Shown: positions 1-10,480 of the stretch, one piece after another
Layout: each line of letters opens with the position of its first letter
How positions within the stretch are numbered: the first letter of the stretch is position 1
Source: a virus
Direction: 5' to 3' (one strand)
DNA: 12,437 bases
Virus genome (UHGV): UHGV-0044338
The notes under the pieces: generated by a model
What the model saw: the letters and a program-made list of their open reading frames with translations, nothing else
What the model was told of the DNA's origin: nothing
Database searches by the model: none
Translations under genes and position numbers: made by a program

Positions 1-232
1 TGGCTGCGGCGATGAATTCAGCATTGGCCTGCTGTTCCATTTGGAAATCTTCATCGAAACCGCTTTCTGGATGCGCTCCTTCAATTCTGCAAATGGGAAT
101 ATATCCAGCAGCCTCGCGATGAATTAGTGCATCATCACCATCAAATCGGCCCTCTCCATATTCGAGCGACCACACACCACACGTTGCTTTCTCTGCTTTT
201 TCACGCAGTGCCTGATAGTCAATCTTGCTCAC
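1..232 (-). CDS. Hypothetical phage protein, N-terminal 77 codons (3' end beyond window)
   Basis: Open frame on minus strand from GTG at 232-230 to window edge, preceded by a consensus SD AAGGAGG (revcomp of 239-245) with 6-nt spacer. Begins VSKIDYQALREKAEKATCGVW. Overlaps the 3' end of the upstream methyltransferase gene by 14 nt in a different frame. Confidence 0.4.
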   Translation of the reverse strand, partial: MSKIDYQALREKAEKATCGVWSLEYGEGRFDGDDALIHREAAGYIPICRIEGAHPESGFDEDFQMEQQANAEFIAAA

Positions 233-713
233 TGGTTGCCTCCTTCATAAAAATAATCCAGTGGGTCTTGTCACCCTTTCCTGTTCGTTGACCGATAACA
301 GGCTTTCTGTCGGTCAGTGCCAATATCTGGCGAACAGGTATTTGCGTTTCATTCCATTTAAAAATCAGAACGCCGTGTGGCCACAACACCCGAAAGGCTT
401 CTTTAAACCCCTGCCGCAAATCATCACGCCAGGTATCTTTATTCAGCCGTCCATATTTCTTTCCCATCCAGGCGTTATCACCAACACGCTCAAGATGCGG
501 AGGGTCGAATACAACCATCGAAAAGGATGCGTCTGCAAATGGTAGTGCACGAAAATCAGCTATCAGGTCAGGACTGATAATCAGGCGTCGTCCATCACAT
601 AATGTGTGCTCTTCCTTTCTGATATCGCTAAATATCGCCCGGTCGTCATTCTTATCGAACCAGAACATGCGACTGCCACAGCACATGTCGAGGATTGCTG
701 CATTTCCAGTCAC
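219..713 (-). CDS. SAM-dependent methyltransferase, probably phage orphan DNA N6-adenine methyltransferase (DPPH catalytic motif)
   Basis: 164-aa ORF with N-terminal glycine-rich SAM-binding-like motif LDMCCGSR followed by VVFDPPH (motif IV-like). GTG start overlaps the stop of the upstream gene (GTGA). An rRNA/other methyltransferase cannot be excluded without a profile search. Confidence 0.6.
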   Translation of the reverse strand: MTGNAAILDMCCGSRMFWFDKNDDRAIFSDIRKEEHTLCDGRRLIISPDLIADFRALPFADASFSMVVFDPPHLERVGDNAWMGKKYGRLNKDTWRDDLRQGFKEAFRVLWPHGVLIFKWNETQIPVRQILALTDRKPVIGQRTGKGDKTHWIIFMKEATSEQD

Positions 714-1138
714 TGGCTGCCTCCTTTGCGAAGCTCTGCGGCGAACTCGTTAAGTGATATGTAGCAATCTCCAAATGTTAACGAACCGCTCGACTGCATA
801 TGTTCCATAGCCATCTCCACGCCCTGCGCCCGTACTTCAGCCAGAAAAGCATCGGTGGCTGGGGTTTTGATTTCGTTAAGCGCATCACTGAATCCACCAC
901 GCTCCATACCTAGCTCTGCTTCGTAATCGGCATCGAATGCAGCGTCTTTGCAGAACTTCTTCAGCTTTGCATTCTCCGCCGCCAGCGCATTAGCACGCAC
1001 CAGTTGCACTTCCAGTTGCGTTGCCAAATCGCTGATCAGCTTTGCCACACTGCGCATATCAACGGCACCACATTCTGCTTTCAGTTCCGAAGCCATCTCA
1101 TGCCCGGCGGCAACTAACCCTTTGATATTACTTTCCAT
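710..1138 (-). CDS. Hypothetical phage protein (coiled-coil rich)
   Basis: 142-aa ORF, ATG start with SD GAGGG upstream, stop overlapping the next gene start. No recognisable catalytic motif. Confidence 0.5.
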   Translation of the reverse strand: MESNIKGLVAAGHEMASELKAECGAVDMRSVAKLISDLATQLEVQLVRANALAAENAKLKKFCKDAAFDADYEAELGMERGGFSDALNEIKTPATDAFLAEVRAQGVEMAMEHMQSSGSLTFGDCYISLNEFAAELRKGGSQ

Positions 1139-1199: not shown

Positions 1200-1544
1200 T
1201 CAGAACTCTTCGATGTTCCAGCCACCACCTGCTTTCTTTGGTTTAACCGTTACCCCGATGATTCGGAACGGATACTGATCTGCGGCGACTTTGGTTTTCA
1301 CCCTGGCGTCGTCGGTCCAGAAACCTTTCACTTCGTGCAGTTCCATCTCGCCGGTGGCGAGCATCACAGCAAAATCGGGCGTATAGAACGTGTTGTCAGC
1401 TAACCGCAGCTTGATACCCTCGAATCGATACCAGGCGATTTCCCCTGCACGTTTACGCTGCTCAAGGTGCTGGCAATACGCAGATTCTGTTTTGTTCATC
1501 TGGCCTGTTTTGAGCCGACCAAGAGCCTGTATCTGTTTTCTCAT
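1200..1544 (-). CDS. Putative PD-(D/E)xK-type nuclease (VRR-NUC-like) of the nin-like region
   Basis: 114-aa ORF containing YTPDF ... ELHEVKG, resembling a PD-(D/E)xK nuclease core. ATG start with AAGGGG SD. Assignment is motif-based only. Confidence 0.5.
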   Translation of the reverse strand: MRKQIQALGRLKTGQMNKTESAYCQHLEQRKRAGEIAWYRFEGIKLRLADNTFYTPDFAVMLATGEMELHEVKGFWTDDARVKTKVAADQYPFRIIGVTVKPKKAGGGWNIEEF

Positions 1545-1547
1545 GAT

Positions 1548-1624
1548 TTACCCCTTAGGTAATTAAAAACCACATAAGACATGAAATCAATAGACATTAG
1601 AACATTTTATTACCCATCAGGTAA
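1548..1624 (-). promoter_or_regulatory. Sigma70-type promoter (TTGATT-17-TTTAAT on minus strand) flanked by two TTACC-N5-GGTAA operator palindromes; drives the nuclease/nin-like genes
   Basis: Perfect palindromes TTACCccttaGGTAA (1548-1562) and TTACCcatcaGGTAA (1610-1624), centres 62 bp apart. -35 is revcomp of 1585-1590 and -10 is revcomp of 1562-1567; the -10 hexamer shares its last base with the downstream operator. Confidence 0.55.
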
Positions 1625-1633
1625 TCACGTGGG

Positions 1634-1660
1634 CGTAAAAAAATGCGCTATCGCGCTGGT
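1634..1660 (-). terminator. Possible weak intrinsic terminator after the P-like gene
   Basis: Minus-strand RNA reads GCGC-gata-GCGC followed by TTTTTTT. Only a 4-bp GC stem, so weak. Confidence 0.3.
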
Positions 1661-1661
1661 A

Positions 1662-2438
1662 TTACTTGATAAATCCTGCCGCCTTTCCCCGCCTGTATTC
1701 CTCCATCAGCCACTGCGCCGGTGTTATTCCCCCAAGGGTGGCAGCGTTAGGCATACACCCGAAACTTCGCCCTGGTGGATGGTAAACGTCTCTCCCTGTG
1801 TCCGGAGGCGTACTCATGGGTTCTGGCTTTGCCTGTATGCTGATCACCGGATCGGGTATCTGCTGTCCGGAAGCCACCTTTTTCGCCCAATCATCGAGCA
1901 ACCTGCGCGCGTGTTTCTCAACCTCAATCTCGCTAAGCTGGCGCTGATACATTGCACGGCGGGTATCACATACGACCCAGTACATAACCGGATGTCGCCA
2001 CGGGAATCTTTCGGGACCACCAGGATATAAACTTTTTTCCTTGCTGTACCGGTGAAACTCCGCCATCACATCGTCAATGGTGACGCCAAGAACCATCTTG
2101 CTGTCTTTGCACCACTTGATGAATTGCCCAGGCGACGGCCAGAACGGAGATTCACTGGCGCGGGCGTGGCGCATACCAGCGTTAACCTGTTCCATTGTTG
2201 TGATCCCATTCTCCAGAAAGGCAAGCATCCATTGCTTACGGAATTCATTAAGTTTGTTCTGCTCCCTTATGGTCGAAACGCTTGCAGGAAATGCAGCCTG
2301 TAACTGGACAAATAGTTCATTGAAAATTCTAGCAACCTGCTCCTTTTTGCCATTGCTGTCACGCCGCTCTTCATGCACAGCAACACCATGCTCACGTAAG
2401 CGATCGTACTCATTGAGAAGTTCTGGAGTTGATTTCAT
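1662..2438 (-). CDS. Replication protein P (lambda P-like DnaB helicase loader)
   Basis: 258-aa ORF closely resembling lambda P as I recall it, including the block WMLAFLENGITTMEQVNAGMRHAR and PFWPSPGQFIKWC. SD GAAGGGG upstream of ATG; 5' end overlaps the 3' end of the upstream initiator gene, as for lambda O-P. Confidence 0.85.
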   Translation of the reverse strand: MKSTPELLNEYDRLREHGVAVHEERRDSNGKKEQVARIFNELFVQLQAAFPASVSTIREQNKLNEFRKQWMLAFLENGITTMEQVNAGMRHARASESPFWPSPGQFIKWCKDSKMVLGVTIDDVMAEFHRYSKEKSLYPGGPERFPWRHPVMYWVVCDTRRAMYQRQLSEIEVEKHARRLLDDWAKKVASGQQIPDPVISIQAKPEPMSTPPDTGRDVYHPPGRSFGCMPNAATLGGITPAQWLMEEYRRGKAAGFIK

Positions 2439-3240
2439 CCCACACCCCTTCTATCCAGTCAGTGTTATTCCAGTCAAGCTCATCGCTTTTCCCGGCGTTT
2501 TTTGATTTTCCCCTGATATGATTTACGTGCCTGGCGAATTTTTGTTCCCACTGAACCTGCGTGAACACTTTGCCCTCAGCCATCAAGTAATCCCGGAATG
2601 CAGCAAGTTCAGCAGGTGTAAATTCCGGTTCCGGCAGGGCCGTTCCCCACAGCGCAGCACGCCGTCGAAAATCCGGCGACGGATGCCAGCCATCGGTCAT
2701 CGGAAATTTCCCGATGGGTTCACTCAGGCCATCCAGAAATTCAGGTTCAGCCACCTGCAACGGCATACCGTTCGCTTCACTGGTCGGAGCACCATCGCGC
2801 ACGTGCGCTATGTGTGGGGTTTTATATATATCTTCCTCTTCCTCTTCCTCTGGTAACTCCTTTTGTAACGCTGTTGGCGTTACTTTTTGCGTTACTCGTT
2901 TTCGATGCTCTGCCACTCTTCTATTCGTAAGTGCACGTTTTTTCGATGATTCTCCATTATGTCGCTCAAAGTTTGGAAGGATTAGTTTGCCGTCATGATA
3001 AGCAAGCCATCCGACGCTAATGAGGGCGTCAGCAAATCCTGTAATAAAAGCGAGTCTATCAAGTACTCCTTTTGTAACGCTGCCAGCGTTACCGTCTATT
3101 GTTTGCTGGTCAGCCCATGCCCATATACGAACCAGCTTTCCAAGAACAGCATCTGGATCAATACCCAGAATTTCTGCTATCTGAAAAATTTCAGGTTTAT
3201 CAGGAGTGATAACTTCAACCTTAATCCAGCTGCTTGCCAT
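2410..3240 (-). CDS. Replication initiator / replisome organiser with C-terminal DnaT-like (primosomal protein I) domain
   Basis: N-terminus MASSWIKVEV...LVRIWAWADQQ resembles phage replisome-organiser N-domains; acidic EEEEEED linker; C-terminus WHPSPDFRRRAALWGTALPEPEFTPAELAAFRDYLMAEGKVFTQVQWEQKFARH closely matches the E. coli DnaT C-terminal region as recalled. Start placed at ATG 3240-3238 (strong GAGGGG SD) rather than the ORF-track start at 3258. Confidence 0.8.
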   Translation of the reverse strand: MASSWIKVEVITPDKPEIFQIAEILGIDPDAVLGKLVRIWAWADQQTIDGNAGSVTKGVLDRLAFITGFADALISVGWLAYHDGKLILPNFERHNGESSKKRALTNRRVAEHRKRVTQKVTPTALQKELPEEEEEEDIYKTPHIAHVRDGAPTSEANGMPLQVAEPEFLDGLSEPIGKFPMTDGWHPSPDFRRRAALWGTALPEPEFTPAELAAFRDYLMAEGKVFTQVQWEQKFARHVNHIRGKSKNAGKSDELDWNNTDWIEGVWDEINSRTSQ

Positions 3241-3433
3241 AGGTTTCCCCTCTTGCACTCTTTAGTGCACAAGCAAATTCATTACGATGGCGGTTGGCGC
3301 TATTCATTGCACATTCAACACATGTTCCGTTCAGAACATACCTTTCAGAGAGATGGCCGTGACGGCACCGCTTTCCTGTGAAATAGCGATTTAACCCGGC
3401 TTTTGCGGCCTCCATTCTGGTTACTATCTTCAA
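3221..3433 (-). CDS. Small putative zinc-binding protein (CxxxH ... CxxC), function unknown; sits where cII lies in lambda
   Basis: 70-aa ORF with CRHGHLSERYVLNGTCVEC. The track start is TTG at 3433; an alternative ATG is at 3415-3413. Start uncertain. Confidence 0.4.
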   Translation of the reverse strand: MKIVTRMEAAKAGLNRYFTGKRCRHGHLSERYVLNGTCVECAMNSANRHRNEFACALKSARGETYGKQLD

Positions 3434-3545
3434 TTTTTCCGCCCCTTTTTGTTATTGATATTGGCTATTTTGCACAATTGGAAAATTTGATCAACCAGAT
3501 TTGGTTTTTTATTACCTTTGAGGTACGAATAGATATGAAAAGAAA

Positions 3546-3620
3546 CCCCCGGGGGGGGGGGGCGGGGGGGGGGGGGGGGGNNNNNNNNNNAAAAAAAAAA
3601 AAACCCCCGGGGGGGGGGGG
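3546..3620. other. Assembly artefact / unresolved gap (poly-C, poly-G, N10, poly-A, poly-C, poly-G)
   Basis: Mirrored homopolymer blocks around ten Ns. Not a biological repeat; true sequence here is unknown. Confidence 0.9.
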
Positions 3621-3645
3621 TTCTACAGAGGGTTGTAGCTGGATA

Positions 3646-3876
3646 TCATGAGTAGAAGAAGTATGCCAGTTCTGCTTTTGAGCGCAGCCATTGTCTTGTT
3701 TTACAGGCTTTAAAAAGCCCATTCATCAATACTTTACCTGGCATTTTGCGCTTACCTGTTAAGTGAGTCTGGATATAGTGACTCGTCGTTCCGGCTTCCT
3801 GTGCGAAGGCTTCACGCTCATCCGGAGTAAGTGCAAGCCAGTGCTTTTTGAAATCGAAATGTCCGTTATCGCTCAT
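3646..3876 (-). CDS. Cro-like HTH regulator (YdaS/Cro type), first gene of the leftward operon
   Basis: 76-aa ORF with HTH-like segment EREAFAQEAGTTSHYIQTHLTGKR, divergent from the repressor gene across an operator-rich intergenic region, same strand as the replication genes. Confidence 0.7.
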   Translation of the reverse strand: MSDNGHFDFKKHWLALTPDEREAFAQEAGTTSHYIQTHLTGKRKMPGKVLMNGLFKACKTRQWLRSKAELAYFFYS

Positions 3877-3901: not shown

Positions 3902-3983
3902 ATAATAAATATTCACCCATAAGGTAACAAAAATCAAGGATAGTTACCCATGAGGTGCATTTACCTGTTGGGTAATATTGCTT
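3902..3983. promoter_or_regulatory. Divergent immunity control region with three operator-like sites and candidate divergent promoters
   Basis: Sites TcACCcataaGGTAA (3913-3927), TTACCcatgaGGTgc (3944-3958) and perfect TTACCtgttgGGTAA (3961-3975). Candidate leftward promoter TTGTTA-17-TATTAT (revcomp of 3925-3930 and 3902-3907) overlaps the first site. Candidate rightward -35 TTGCTT (3978-3983) lies 3 bp past the third site, but its -10 is poor. Confidence 0.55.
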
Positions 3984-4030: not shown

Positions 4031-4615
4031 ATGAAAAGTATCCAGGACGTCCGCAGGCAAAATCTCAACGACTTGATCGACCGTGAATTCAATGGTGTTC
4101 AGACGCGGATGGCAGAAAAACTTGGAACTCAGGCAAATCTGGTAAACCGCTGGGCTCTTGGCAAAAAGGTTATCGGCGACCAGGTTGCGCGAAAAATTGA
4201 AGCTGCCGCCAATAAACCCCGTAACTGGCTTGATATCGATCGCTCGCTTTCTCAGGAGGGGTTTCAGCCTGTCGGCCCAAGCGACATTGGTCAGCTGGCG
4301 GCTCACAACCTGGAACGCTGGATGAGCGAAAGCCGCGACCTTTCAACTCAGGGAAAACTTCACCGCGCATCCGGCGTCGCCCAGGTGACAATCAGCCGCC
4401 TGTTAAACAATGAGGTCAGCGTTTCCATTTCCACCCTGGAGAATGTTGCATCCGCATTCGGGCGTCACGGCTATGAATTACTGATTCACCCGCACGACCC
4501 TGCGACTATCAACTATGACCGCTCGCGCTACGCATTGTTACCCGAAACAGAGAAGGCAAAGATCGAAAGTTACATTGAATTTGTCATCAGCCAGAACGAA
4601 AAAAACAAACAATAA
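4031..4615 (+). CDS. Prophage repressor (CI-like) with two XRE-type HTH motifs and no S24/LexA-type peptidase domain
   Basis: 194-aa ORF. HTH-like segments QTRMAEKLGTQANLVNRWALGKK (N-terminal) and LHRASGVAQVTISRLLNNEVSVSISTLENVA (central). No G-S-M / Ser-Lys dyad C-terminal domain visible. Divergent from the cro-like gene and followed by a strong terminator. Confidence 0.7.
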   Translation: MKSIQDVRRQNLNDLIDREFNGVQTRMAEKLGTQANLVNRWALGKKVIGDQVARKIEAAANKPRNWLDIDRSLSQEGFQPVGPSDIGQLAAHNLERWMSESRDLSTQGKLHRASGVAQVTISRLLNNEVSVSISTLENVASAFGRHGYELLIHPHDPATINYDRSRYALLPETEKAKIESYIEFVISQNEKNKQ

Positions 4616-4661: not shown

Positions 4662-4671
4662 TGCCTGTGCG

Positions 4672-4750
4672 ATTACCTAATGGGTAATTTTTTTAACTCA
4701 TATCTATTGACATCAAACCAAATACGCATAATTATTACCTCAACGGTAAC
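4672..4750 (+). promoter_or_regulatory. pL-like early promoter (TTGACA-17-AATTAT) flanked by two TTACC-N5-GGTAA operator palindromes
   Basis: Perfect consensus -35 TTGACA (4707-4712) with -10 candidate 4730-4735. Perfect palindromes ATTACCtaatgGGTAAT (4672-4688) and TTACCtcaacGGTAA (4735-4749), centres 62 bp apart; the -10 hexamer shares its last base with the downstream operator. Confidence 0.6.
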
Positions 4751-10444: not shown

Positions 10445-10480
10445 GACGGTATGAGAGTATACCTTTAAGGTAATACCGTC
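10445..10480. other. Nested inverted repeats in the int-guaA spacer; candidate attachment-site or recombinase-binding region
   Basis: GACGGTA (10445-10451) and TACCGTC (10474-10480) flank TATACCtttaaGGTAAT (10458-10474). No tRNA gene is present here. Confidence 0.25.

Follow-up and report, generated by a model that had tools for sequence, protein, structure and literature searches.

In phage lambda, the nin region (P-ren-ninB...) is expressed by N-antiterminated pR transcription, and we know of no repressor-controlled promoter between P and nin. The DNA analysed here, a 12,437-nucleotide stretch of virus genome UHGV-0044338 (hereafter the window), contains a comparable block of recombination and modification genes placed, as in lambda nin, between the replication and the late genes. 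It differs from lambda in carrying a conserved operator-promoter-like-operator cassette, at positions 1548-1624, between P and the first downstream gene. This raises the question of how such a block is controlled. Our reading, to which we give a probability of about two in three, is that 1548-1624 contains a second early promoter, built on the plan of pL and locked directly by Rep, the prophage repressor; Rep binding, looping, promoter activity and promoter strength at this site are properties that we infer from the sequence.

The window belongs to an E. coli prophage of the phiV10/epsilon15 type (genus Uetakevirus), integrated beside guaA. Its positions 1150-2450 are 100% identical to E. coli AHB29 (NZ_OZ547246.1) and 96-98% identical to phages HEMP4, ZX5, TL-2011b and phiV10, and DNA of this prophage is present in 542 of 5,426 complete E. 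coli genomes (~10%). The gene order is lambda-like, with rep followed by pL and the recombination genes on the plus strand, and with the following succession on the minus strand: a cro-like gene, a DnaT-like initiator, P, a DUF1064 gene, a gene of unknown function and a methyltransferase.

4031-4615, plus strand: Rep, the cognate repressor, with two HTH domains and no peptidase domain (PDB 5D50; Pfam HTH_3).
3646-3876, minus strand: cro-like gene.
2410-3258, minus strand: DnaT-like initiator.
1662-2438, minus strand: replication protein P, upstream of the operator pair (Pfam Phage_lambda_P, E=2e-55).
1200-1544, minus strand: DUF1064 protein, a Holliday-junction-resolvase-like nuclease, first gene of the unit (Pfam PF06356).
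710-1138, minus strand: second gene of the unit (match to phrog_492, unknown function).
219-713, minus strand: DNA methyltransferase with an FDPPH motif, third gene of the unit (phrog_954, E=8e-89).

The DUF1064 protein also matches phrog_190 ('Holliday junction resolvase', E=6e-43), and the translated methyltransferase contains VVFDPPHLE. The proposed unit extends beyond the methyltransferase to a regulator gene located directly before terS. Rep matches the SPC32H Repressor (PDB 5D50) over its full length (residues 1-190, E=4e-42), and a Rep homologue is encoded in 28 out of 28 phage records holding the prophage DNA. As summarised elsewhere (PMC9638917, PMC9986798), the SPC32H repressor is a DNA-binding tetramer inactivated by an antirepressor, which is itself a tetramer (PMC9638917). 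The Rep tetramer has two pairs of DNA-binding domains.

Examination of the interval between P and the DUF1064 gene revealed two copies of the 15-bp palindrome TTACC-N5-GGTAA, to be compared with the sites of the immunity region.

1610-1624: candidate upstream Rep operator, palindrome TTACCCATCAGGTAA (minus-strand reading ATTACCTGATGGGTAAT), exact consensus match.
1548-1562: candidate downstream Rep operator, palindrome TTACCCCTTAGGTAA, exact consensus match.
3913-3975: OR, between the cro-like gene and rep, with operators at 3913-3927, 3944-3958 and 3961-3975.

The pair, which had been noticed in a preliminary description of this DNA, proves to consist of exact copies of the operators that flank the repressor gene. 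Five exact matches occur in the 12.4 kb of the window, where none is expected, and the remaining three adjoin rep (OR at 3961, OL at 4673 and 4735); across 200 dinucleotide-preserving shuffles of the window, zero exact matches were found. When two mismatches or fewer are allowed, 12 matches are obtained where 3.7 would be expected, and the remaining OR sites, at 3913 and 3944, are among those gained. The search with an N6-spaced palindrome gave nothing relevant, N5 being the right spacing. OR overlaps pR (TTGTTA-17-TATTAT, 3930-3902, minus strand). Rfam gave no structured-RNA match over the whole window. The plus-strand ORF 1581-2030, which begins between the two operators, was rejected as a gene because position 1582 of its ATG is a C in 60 of 71 relatives.

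The operator pair was found in every relative reaching the site, that is in about 100 loci from seven genera, nearly always with a 62-bp spacing. These include phages phiV10, epsilon15, BUCT554, Tyrion, SPN1S, SPC32H, PAT1, ZX5 and two Klebsiella phages, all IMG/VR loci long enough to include the site, and prophages of Superficieibacter, Erwinia dacicola, Klebsiella, Citrobacter and Scandinavium. When OL pairs and 1548-1624-type pairs are counted together (94 loci), 175 out of 180 are spaced 62 bp. Among 71 unique E. coli-group sequences, nucleotide diversity is 0-0.03 at the 20 half-site positions, and about 0.5 at the operator centres and a few linker positions, the centres reaching 0.5-0.6. 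The TTACC/GGTAA half-sites are common to all Rep homologues down to 42% identity, the range to which those of epsilon15, SPN1S, Klebsiella, Citrobacter and Scandinavium belong; such sites are absent in the case of homologues of the N-terminal domain only (Hydrogenovibrio, Thiomicrospira, Paraburkholderia).

Chance palindromes, or a recombination remnant devoid of function, would be one way to account for the pair, and only the A/T-richness of the interval speaks for it. Five exact sites against zero in the shuffles, together with half-sites that stay fixed beside highly variable centres in a pair kept by all relatives examined, leave this explanation practically no probability. The same conclusion is drawn from phage ZX5, in which the 36.6 kb examined hold 10 exact operators, where base composition predicts 0.04. 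Each of the 10 is intergenic, although only 9% of the DNA examined is non-coding (binomial P=3e-11). We consider it highly probable, on these sequence grounds, that 1548-1562 and 1610-1624 are true Rep operators.

The variability of the intergenic DNA is an observation in its own right. At unconstrained intergenic positions mean nucleotide diversity is about 0.33 (up to 0.59), compared with 0.05-0.08 at 4-fold degenerate sites of the flanking genes. Highly polymorphic positions are 1553-1556, 1595-1596, 1603, 1609, 1615-1619 and 1625-1633, and also 4664-4682 near rep; the upstream operator has 26 distinct centre pentamers among relatives. Short-term hypermutation at the operator centres was considered and rejected as the source of this excess, because sequence pairs whose flanks (916 bp) show no more than 5 differences have only 0-1.4 differing positions in the intergenic DNA.

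The DNA enclosed by the two operators and its surroundings contain the elements of a promoter, which were compared with those of pL in the same prophage.

1637-1656, minus strand: candidate weak intrinsic terminator, GCGC-GATA-GCGC followed by one A and T7, from folding and conservation.
1585-1590, minus strand: candidate -35 TTGATT, conserved in 71 E. coli-group copies.
1562-1567, minus strand: candidate -10 TTTAAT after a 17-nt spacer, conserved in the same 71 copies.
4673-4749, plus strand: pL cassette, the architectural reference, with operators at 4673-4687 and 4735-4749.
4707-4712 and 4730-4735, plus strand: pL hexamers TTGACA and AATTAT, with a 17-nt spacer.

Read along the minus strand, the P stop codon is followed by the terminator, about 9-12 variable nt, the operator at 1624-1610, 18 A/T-rich nt, TTGATT, the 17-nt spacer and TTTAAT (1567-1562), the last T of which is the first T of the operator at 1562-1548. 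The upstream operator would lie at about -69 to -55 relative to the predicted start. Besides sharing this T with the -10, the downstream operator covers the predicted start site and the Shine-Dalgarno sequence AAGGGG (1556-1551), and it stops 3 nt short of the DUF1064 ATG (1544). pL, which is preceded by the rep terminator, follows the same terminator-linker-operator-18 nt-(-35)-17 nt-(-10)-operator plan, and its pattern of variation across relatives is like that at 1548-1624. At both places the -35 begins 34 nt from the beginning of the upstream operator, a 17-nt spacer leads to the -10, the final T of the -10 opens the downstream operator, and the operators are 62 bp apart start to start, or about 5.9 helical turns. 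pL differs by its consensus -35 and by an A at position 2 of its -10, and should therefore be the stronger of the two; its downstream operator is also clear of any ribosome-binding site.

TTGATT-17-TTTAAT matches the consensus at 9 of 12 positions and was omitted by a standard promoter scan because its -10 lacks the A at position 2. Ranked with an approximate sigma-70 matrix, it is 5th among 24,810 window positions, pL being 1st and pR 2nd. An alternative -10 register is TTAATT at 18 nt. As no register of the E. coli-group sequence offers an A at position 2 of the -10, this promoter may be weak or activator-dependent.

The terminator that had been suspected after P, within 1634-1660, appears to be real but weak. 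Its stem (1656-1645) has only 4 pairs, all G-C, where at least 5 are expected of an intrinsic terminator, for which reason the terminator scan gave no call after P, and is followed by the T7 run at 1643-1637. The hairpin is predicted at -7.4 kcal/mol, whereas the arm's three other terminators reach -12 to -15, and the 48-nt stretch that holds it has a folding z-score of -2.0. In the phiV10 record the same element is labelled a putative rho-independent terminator. Such a weak terminator suggests that pR read-through probably also supplies the downstream block. Read-through might even provide most of the expression, in which case the operators would serve chiefly as a roadblock. The view of this block as an independently regulated unit is therefore likely only partly true: it has a cassette of its own, and it is probably not fully insulated from pR.

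These features also allow a promoterless explanation, in which the Rep operators and the weak terminator would act as a roadblock insulating the block against leaky pR transcription, and expression after induction would come from read-through only. The poor -10 without A at position 2, missed by the scan, fits this explanation, as do the weakness of the terminator, which makes read-through plausible, and the position of the downstream operator on the ribosome-binding site and start region. The operator pair of terS points the same way, since it overlaps the start codon and leaves little space for a classical promoter. A pure roadblock, however, would not require two sites placed 62 bp apart around conserved hexamers. 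The geometry, which copies pL base for base, and the high rank of the candidate also speak against it. In the 71 E. coli-group sequences the -35, the -10, the terminator stem, the T-run and almost the whole spacer are invariant, so that hexamers and spacing are fixed where neighbouring linker bases are free. Twelve divergent copies from seven genera agree in GCGC..GCGC+T7, in the half-sites of both operators, in TATTGA and in AATT, and 9 of these copies have TAAATT as a proper -10 at 18-nt spacing; the terminator loop varies between genera, and the stem and T7 do not. We thus regard read-through past a roadblock as unlikely to be the whole explanation, and consider that a separate operator-flanked promoter, as first proposed, is supported by hexamers in the pL register and by conservation of the cassette across genera.

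The cassette is kept behind differing upstream genes (P, a DnaT-like gene only, or others), and also where a RuvC-type resolvase replaces DUF1064, as in epsilon15, Tyrion and PAT1, the joint of the gene swap falling exactly at the downstream operator and ATG. Two comparisons of the orthologues of window 1542-1562 illustrate this: loci L004 and L090, like L006 and L101, have near-identical cassettes followed by DUF1064 in one case and a RuvC-type gene in the other. Since their sequences diverge directly past the ATG, the operator and ribosome-binding site mark a joint of mosaic recombination.

A second motif was noticed in the same intergenic DNA. ATGTGG(T/A)T precedes an A/T-rich -10 region at window 1568-1575 (minus-strand ATGTGGTT), occurs again at 1153-1160 in the intergenic DNA before the gene at 710-1138, and is found in ZX5 before the portal operon and on the tail-fibre side of the ant region. 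TGG is kept at the ATGTGGTT position in 11 of the 12 divergent cassettes. As a shared motif it was not retained, since three exact intergenic copies of ATGTGGTT in ZX5 against about one expected is not significant.

The cassette is already partly annotated, through the upstream operator in epsilon15 and the terminator in phiV10, and the present finding extends the epsilon15 annotation. The epsilon15 RefSeq record (NC_004775.2) carries a protein_bind feature 'repressor / lysogeny' at 35906-35922, in addition to three OL sites. This feature is the orthologue of the upstream operator 1610-1624 and lies before resolvase gene 43, which lends support to the proposal that the repressor controls the site directly. 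The second operator is unannotated in that record, which marks no promoter and no pL-like geometry. The epsilon15 sequence resembles the window in having GCGC..GCGC+T7, ATTACC-N5-GGTAAT, TTGAAA, TAAATT and a second TTACC-N5-GGTAA 3 nt before the ATG, with a 62-bp spacing and a consensus that the pair shares with the OL and OR of epsilon15 itself. It differs by its RuvC-type resolvase downstream, where the window has DUF1064, by a DnaT-like initiator upstream in place of P, and by a repressor (gp38) that is only 42% identical. In SPC32H, which encodes a full-length Rep homologue, the same operator pair precedes a DUF1064 gene as in the window. The SPC32H Rep/Ant work published by Kim and Ryu in 2013 and by Kim et al. 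in 2016 is said to concern the operators of the immunity region. Literature text searches for the operator sequence, whose coverage did not extend to the primary epsilon15 and SPC32H papers, returned nothing relevant, and in the ZX5 paper (PMC9782041), where transcripts were measured only for endolysin, holin, int, rep and ant, operator or start-site data are absent.

The ten exact operators of ZX5 comprise those of OR and OL and the 1548-1624-type pair; the others stand directly ahead of terS, ahead of the portal operon, and at three places in the antirepressor region.

ZX5 (L008) 13814, 16927/16945, 34147, 34527 and 35592; L002 8628/8646: exact Rep operators outside the immunity region.

At terS, directly after a terminator, the start codon is overlapped by two operators lying side by side. 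A motif made of a terminator, one or more operators and the next operon recurs four times on the leftward arm, where it follows rep, cro, P and the regulator gene that precedes terS. The antirepressor (ant) region of ZX5 holds the LexA box TACTGTATAAATATACAGT; for SPC32H, with Rep and Ant structures in PDB 5D50 and 5D4Z, Kim and Ryu reportedly placed ant under LexA control in 2013. The layout is therefore a genome-wide design of which 1548-1624 is one instance. A lock reserved for the nuclease and methyltransferase is too narrow an idea: the same cassette stands before RuvC-type genes, the unit continues past the methyltransferase, and such operators are found at every operon head of ZX5.

The distribution of these sites also bears on another role, that of auxiliary operators raising the local Rep concentration or looping to OR and OL, 2.3-3.1 kb away, and so tightening the control of pR and pL. 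Precedents are the OL-OR looping of lambda and the flanking FL/FR sites of phage 186. In keeping with such a role, Rep homologues form tetramers that can bridge two operators (PMC9638917, PMC9986798), and both sites are exact copies of the consensus. Against it stand the base-pair-precise placement of the sites around promoter-like hexamers and a ribosome-binding site, and the presence in ZX5 of equivalents at all the other operon heads, the farthest some 11-12 kb away from rep; at such distances local control fits better than help to OR and OL. A purely auxiliary role seems improbable to us, and the auxiliary role and local promoter control are not mutually exclusive.

Several further sequences of the window deserve mention. 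A near-operator with one mismatch, TTACCTTTGAGGTAC at 3512-3526, lies after the cro terminator and before a small gene preceding the replication genes; it is kept in phiV10, ZX5 and Tyrion, stands alone and has no clear promoter. Another, ATACCTTTAAGGTAA at 10459-10473, also with one mismatch, is att-proximal, ~127 bp upstream of the integrase start, and is kept in ZX5, epsilon15 and the Superficieibacter, Citrobacter and Scandinavium prophages; it may put int under Rep control, or may instead be bound by integrase or IHF. The palindrome GTAACGC-N5-GCGTTAC is found twice within the DnaT-like initiator gene, at 2865-2883 and 3074-3092, with an additional GCGTTAC at 2889-2895. By analogy with ori in lambda gene O, these repeats are candidate origin or initiator-binding sites. 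Finally, window 3540-3625 shows C and G runs, ten N and an A13 tract in place of the terminator after the cro-like gene. The 100%-identical genome has a native terminator, GACCGCC-ACCC-GGCGGTC+TTTT, at the equivalent place, and the stretch at 3540-3625 is missing from 99% of the 71 relatives, so that it looks like an assembly or masking artefact and not like biology.

If 1548-1624 is a Rep-locked early promoter, as we propose, pR transcription would reach a short, probably leaky terminator just past P. In a lysogen, Rep would occupy both operators, probably as one tetramer, the 62-bp spacing of about six helical turns placing them on the same helix face. Looping is suggested by the tetramer described for the SPC32H Rep (PMC9638917), and a 62-bp loop is tight. 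With both sites filled, RNA polymerase would be kept off the promoter between them, and pR read-through would also be stopped at the start site and ribosome-binding site. Once the LexA-controlled antirepressor strips Rep, the promoter would fire together with pL and pR, and would express the DUF1064 protein, the protein of unknown function, the DPPH methyltransferase and the remaining 'nin-like' genes up to the regulator preceding terS.

Repression from dispersed operators is known from P1 C1, from CB of N15 and PY54, and from the 'stoperators' bound by gp71 of mycobacteriophage L5. Like Rep, these repressors each act on many scattered transcription units, and the operators found in ZX5 at several operon heads beyond the immunity region recall the logic of P1 C1 without any homology. 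The families of the P1, N15 and L5 repressors are unrelated to Rep, the sites of which are symmetric 15-mers paired around promoters; L5 stoperators are asymmetric and act within transcribed regions. In a bolder view, possible and for the moment rather doubtful, the whole Uetakevirus genome would be a series of terminator-insulated cassettes, each closed by a Rep tetramer micro-looping operators 62 bp apart and all freed by one antirepressor, with no antitermination, the cassette being a portable unit and a recombination joint.

Our finding at 1548-1624 does not overturn current understanding. It concerns a prophage family present in about 10% of complete E. coli genomes and also in Salmonella, Klebsiella and Enterobacter, in which the switch works via an antirepressor and not by repressor cleavage. 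The compact cassette, a promoter enclosed by two 15-bp operators at 62-bp spacing, could be used as a tightly repressible expression module, for which the repressor and antirepressor structures are known. A map of Rep-locked promoters would indicate which genes are silent in lysogens, among them a junction nuclease, DNA methyltransferases and a late-gene regulator, and which fire together upon induction, and such promoters would explain how a lambda-like gene order works without an obvious antitermination cascade.
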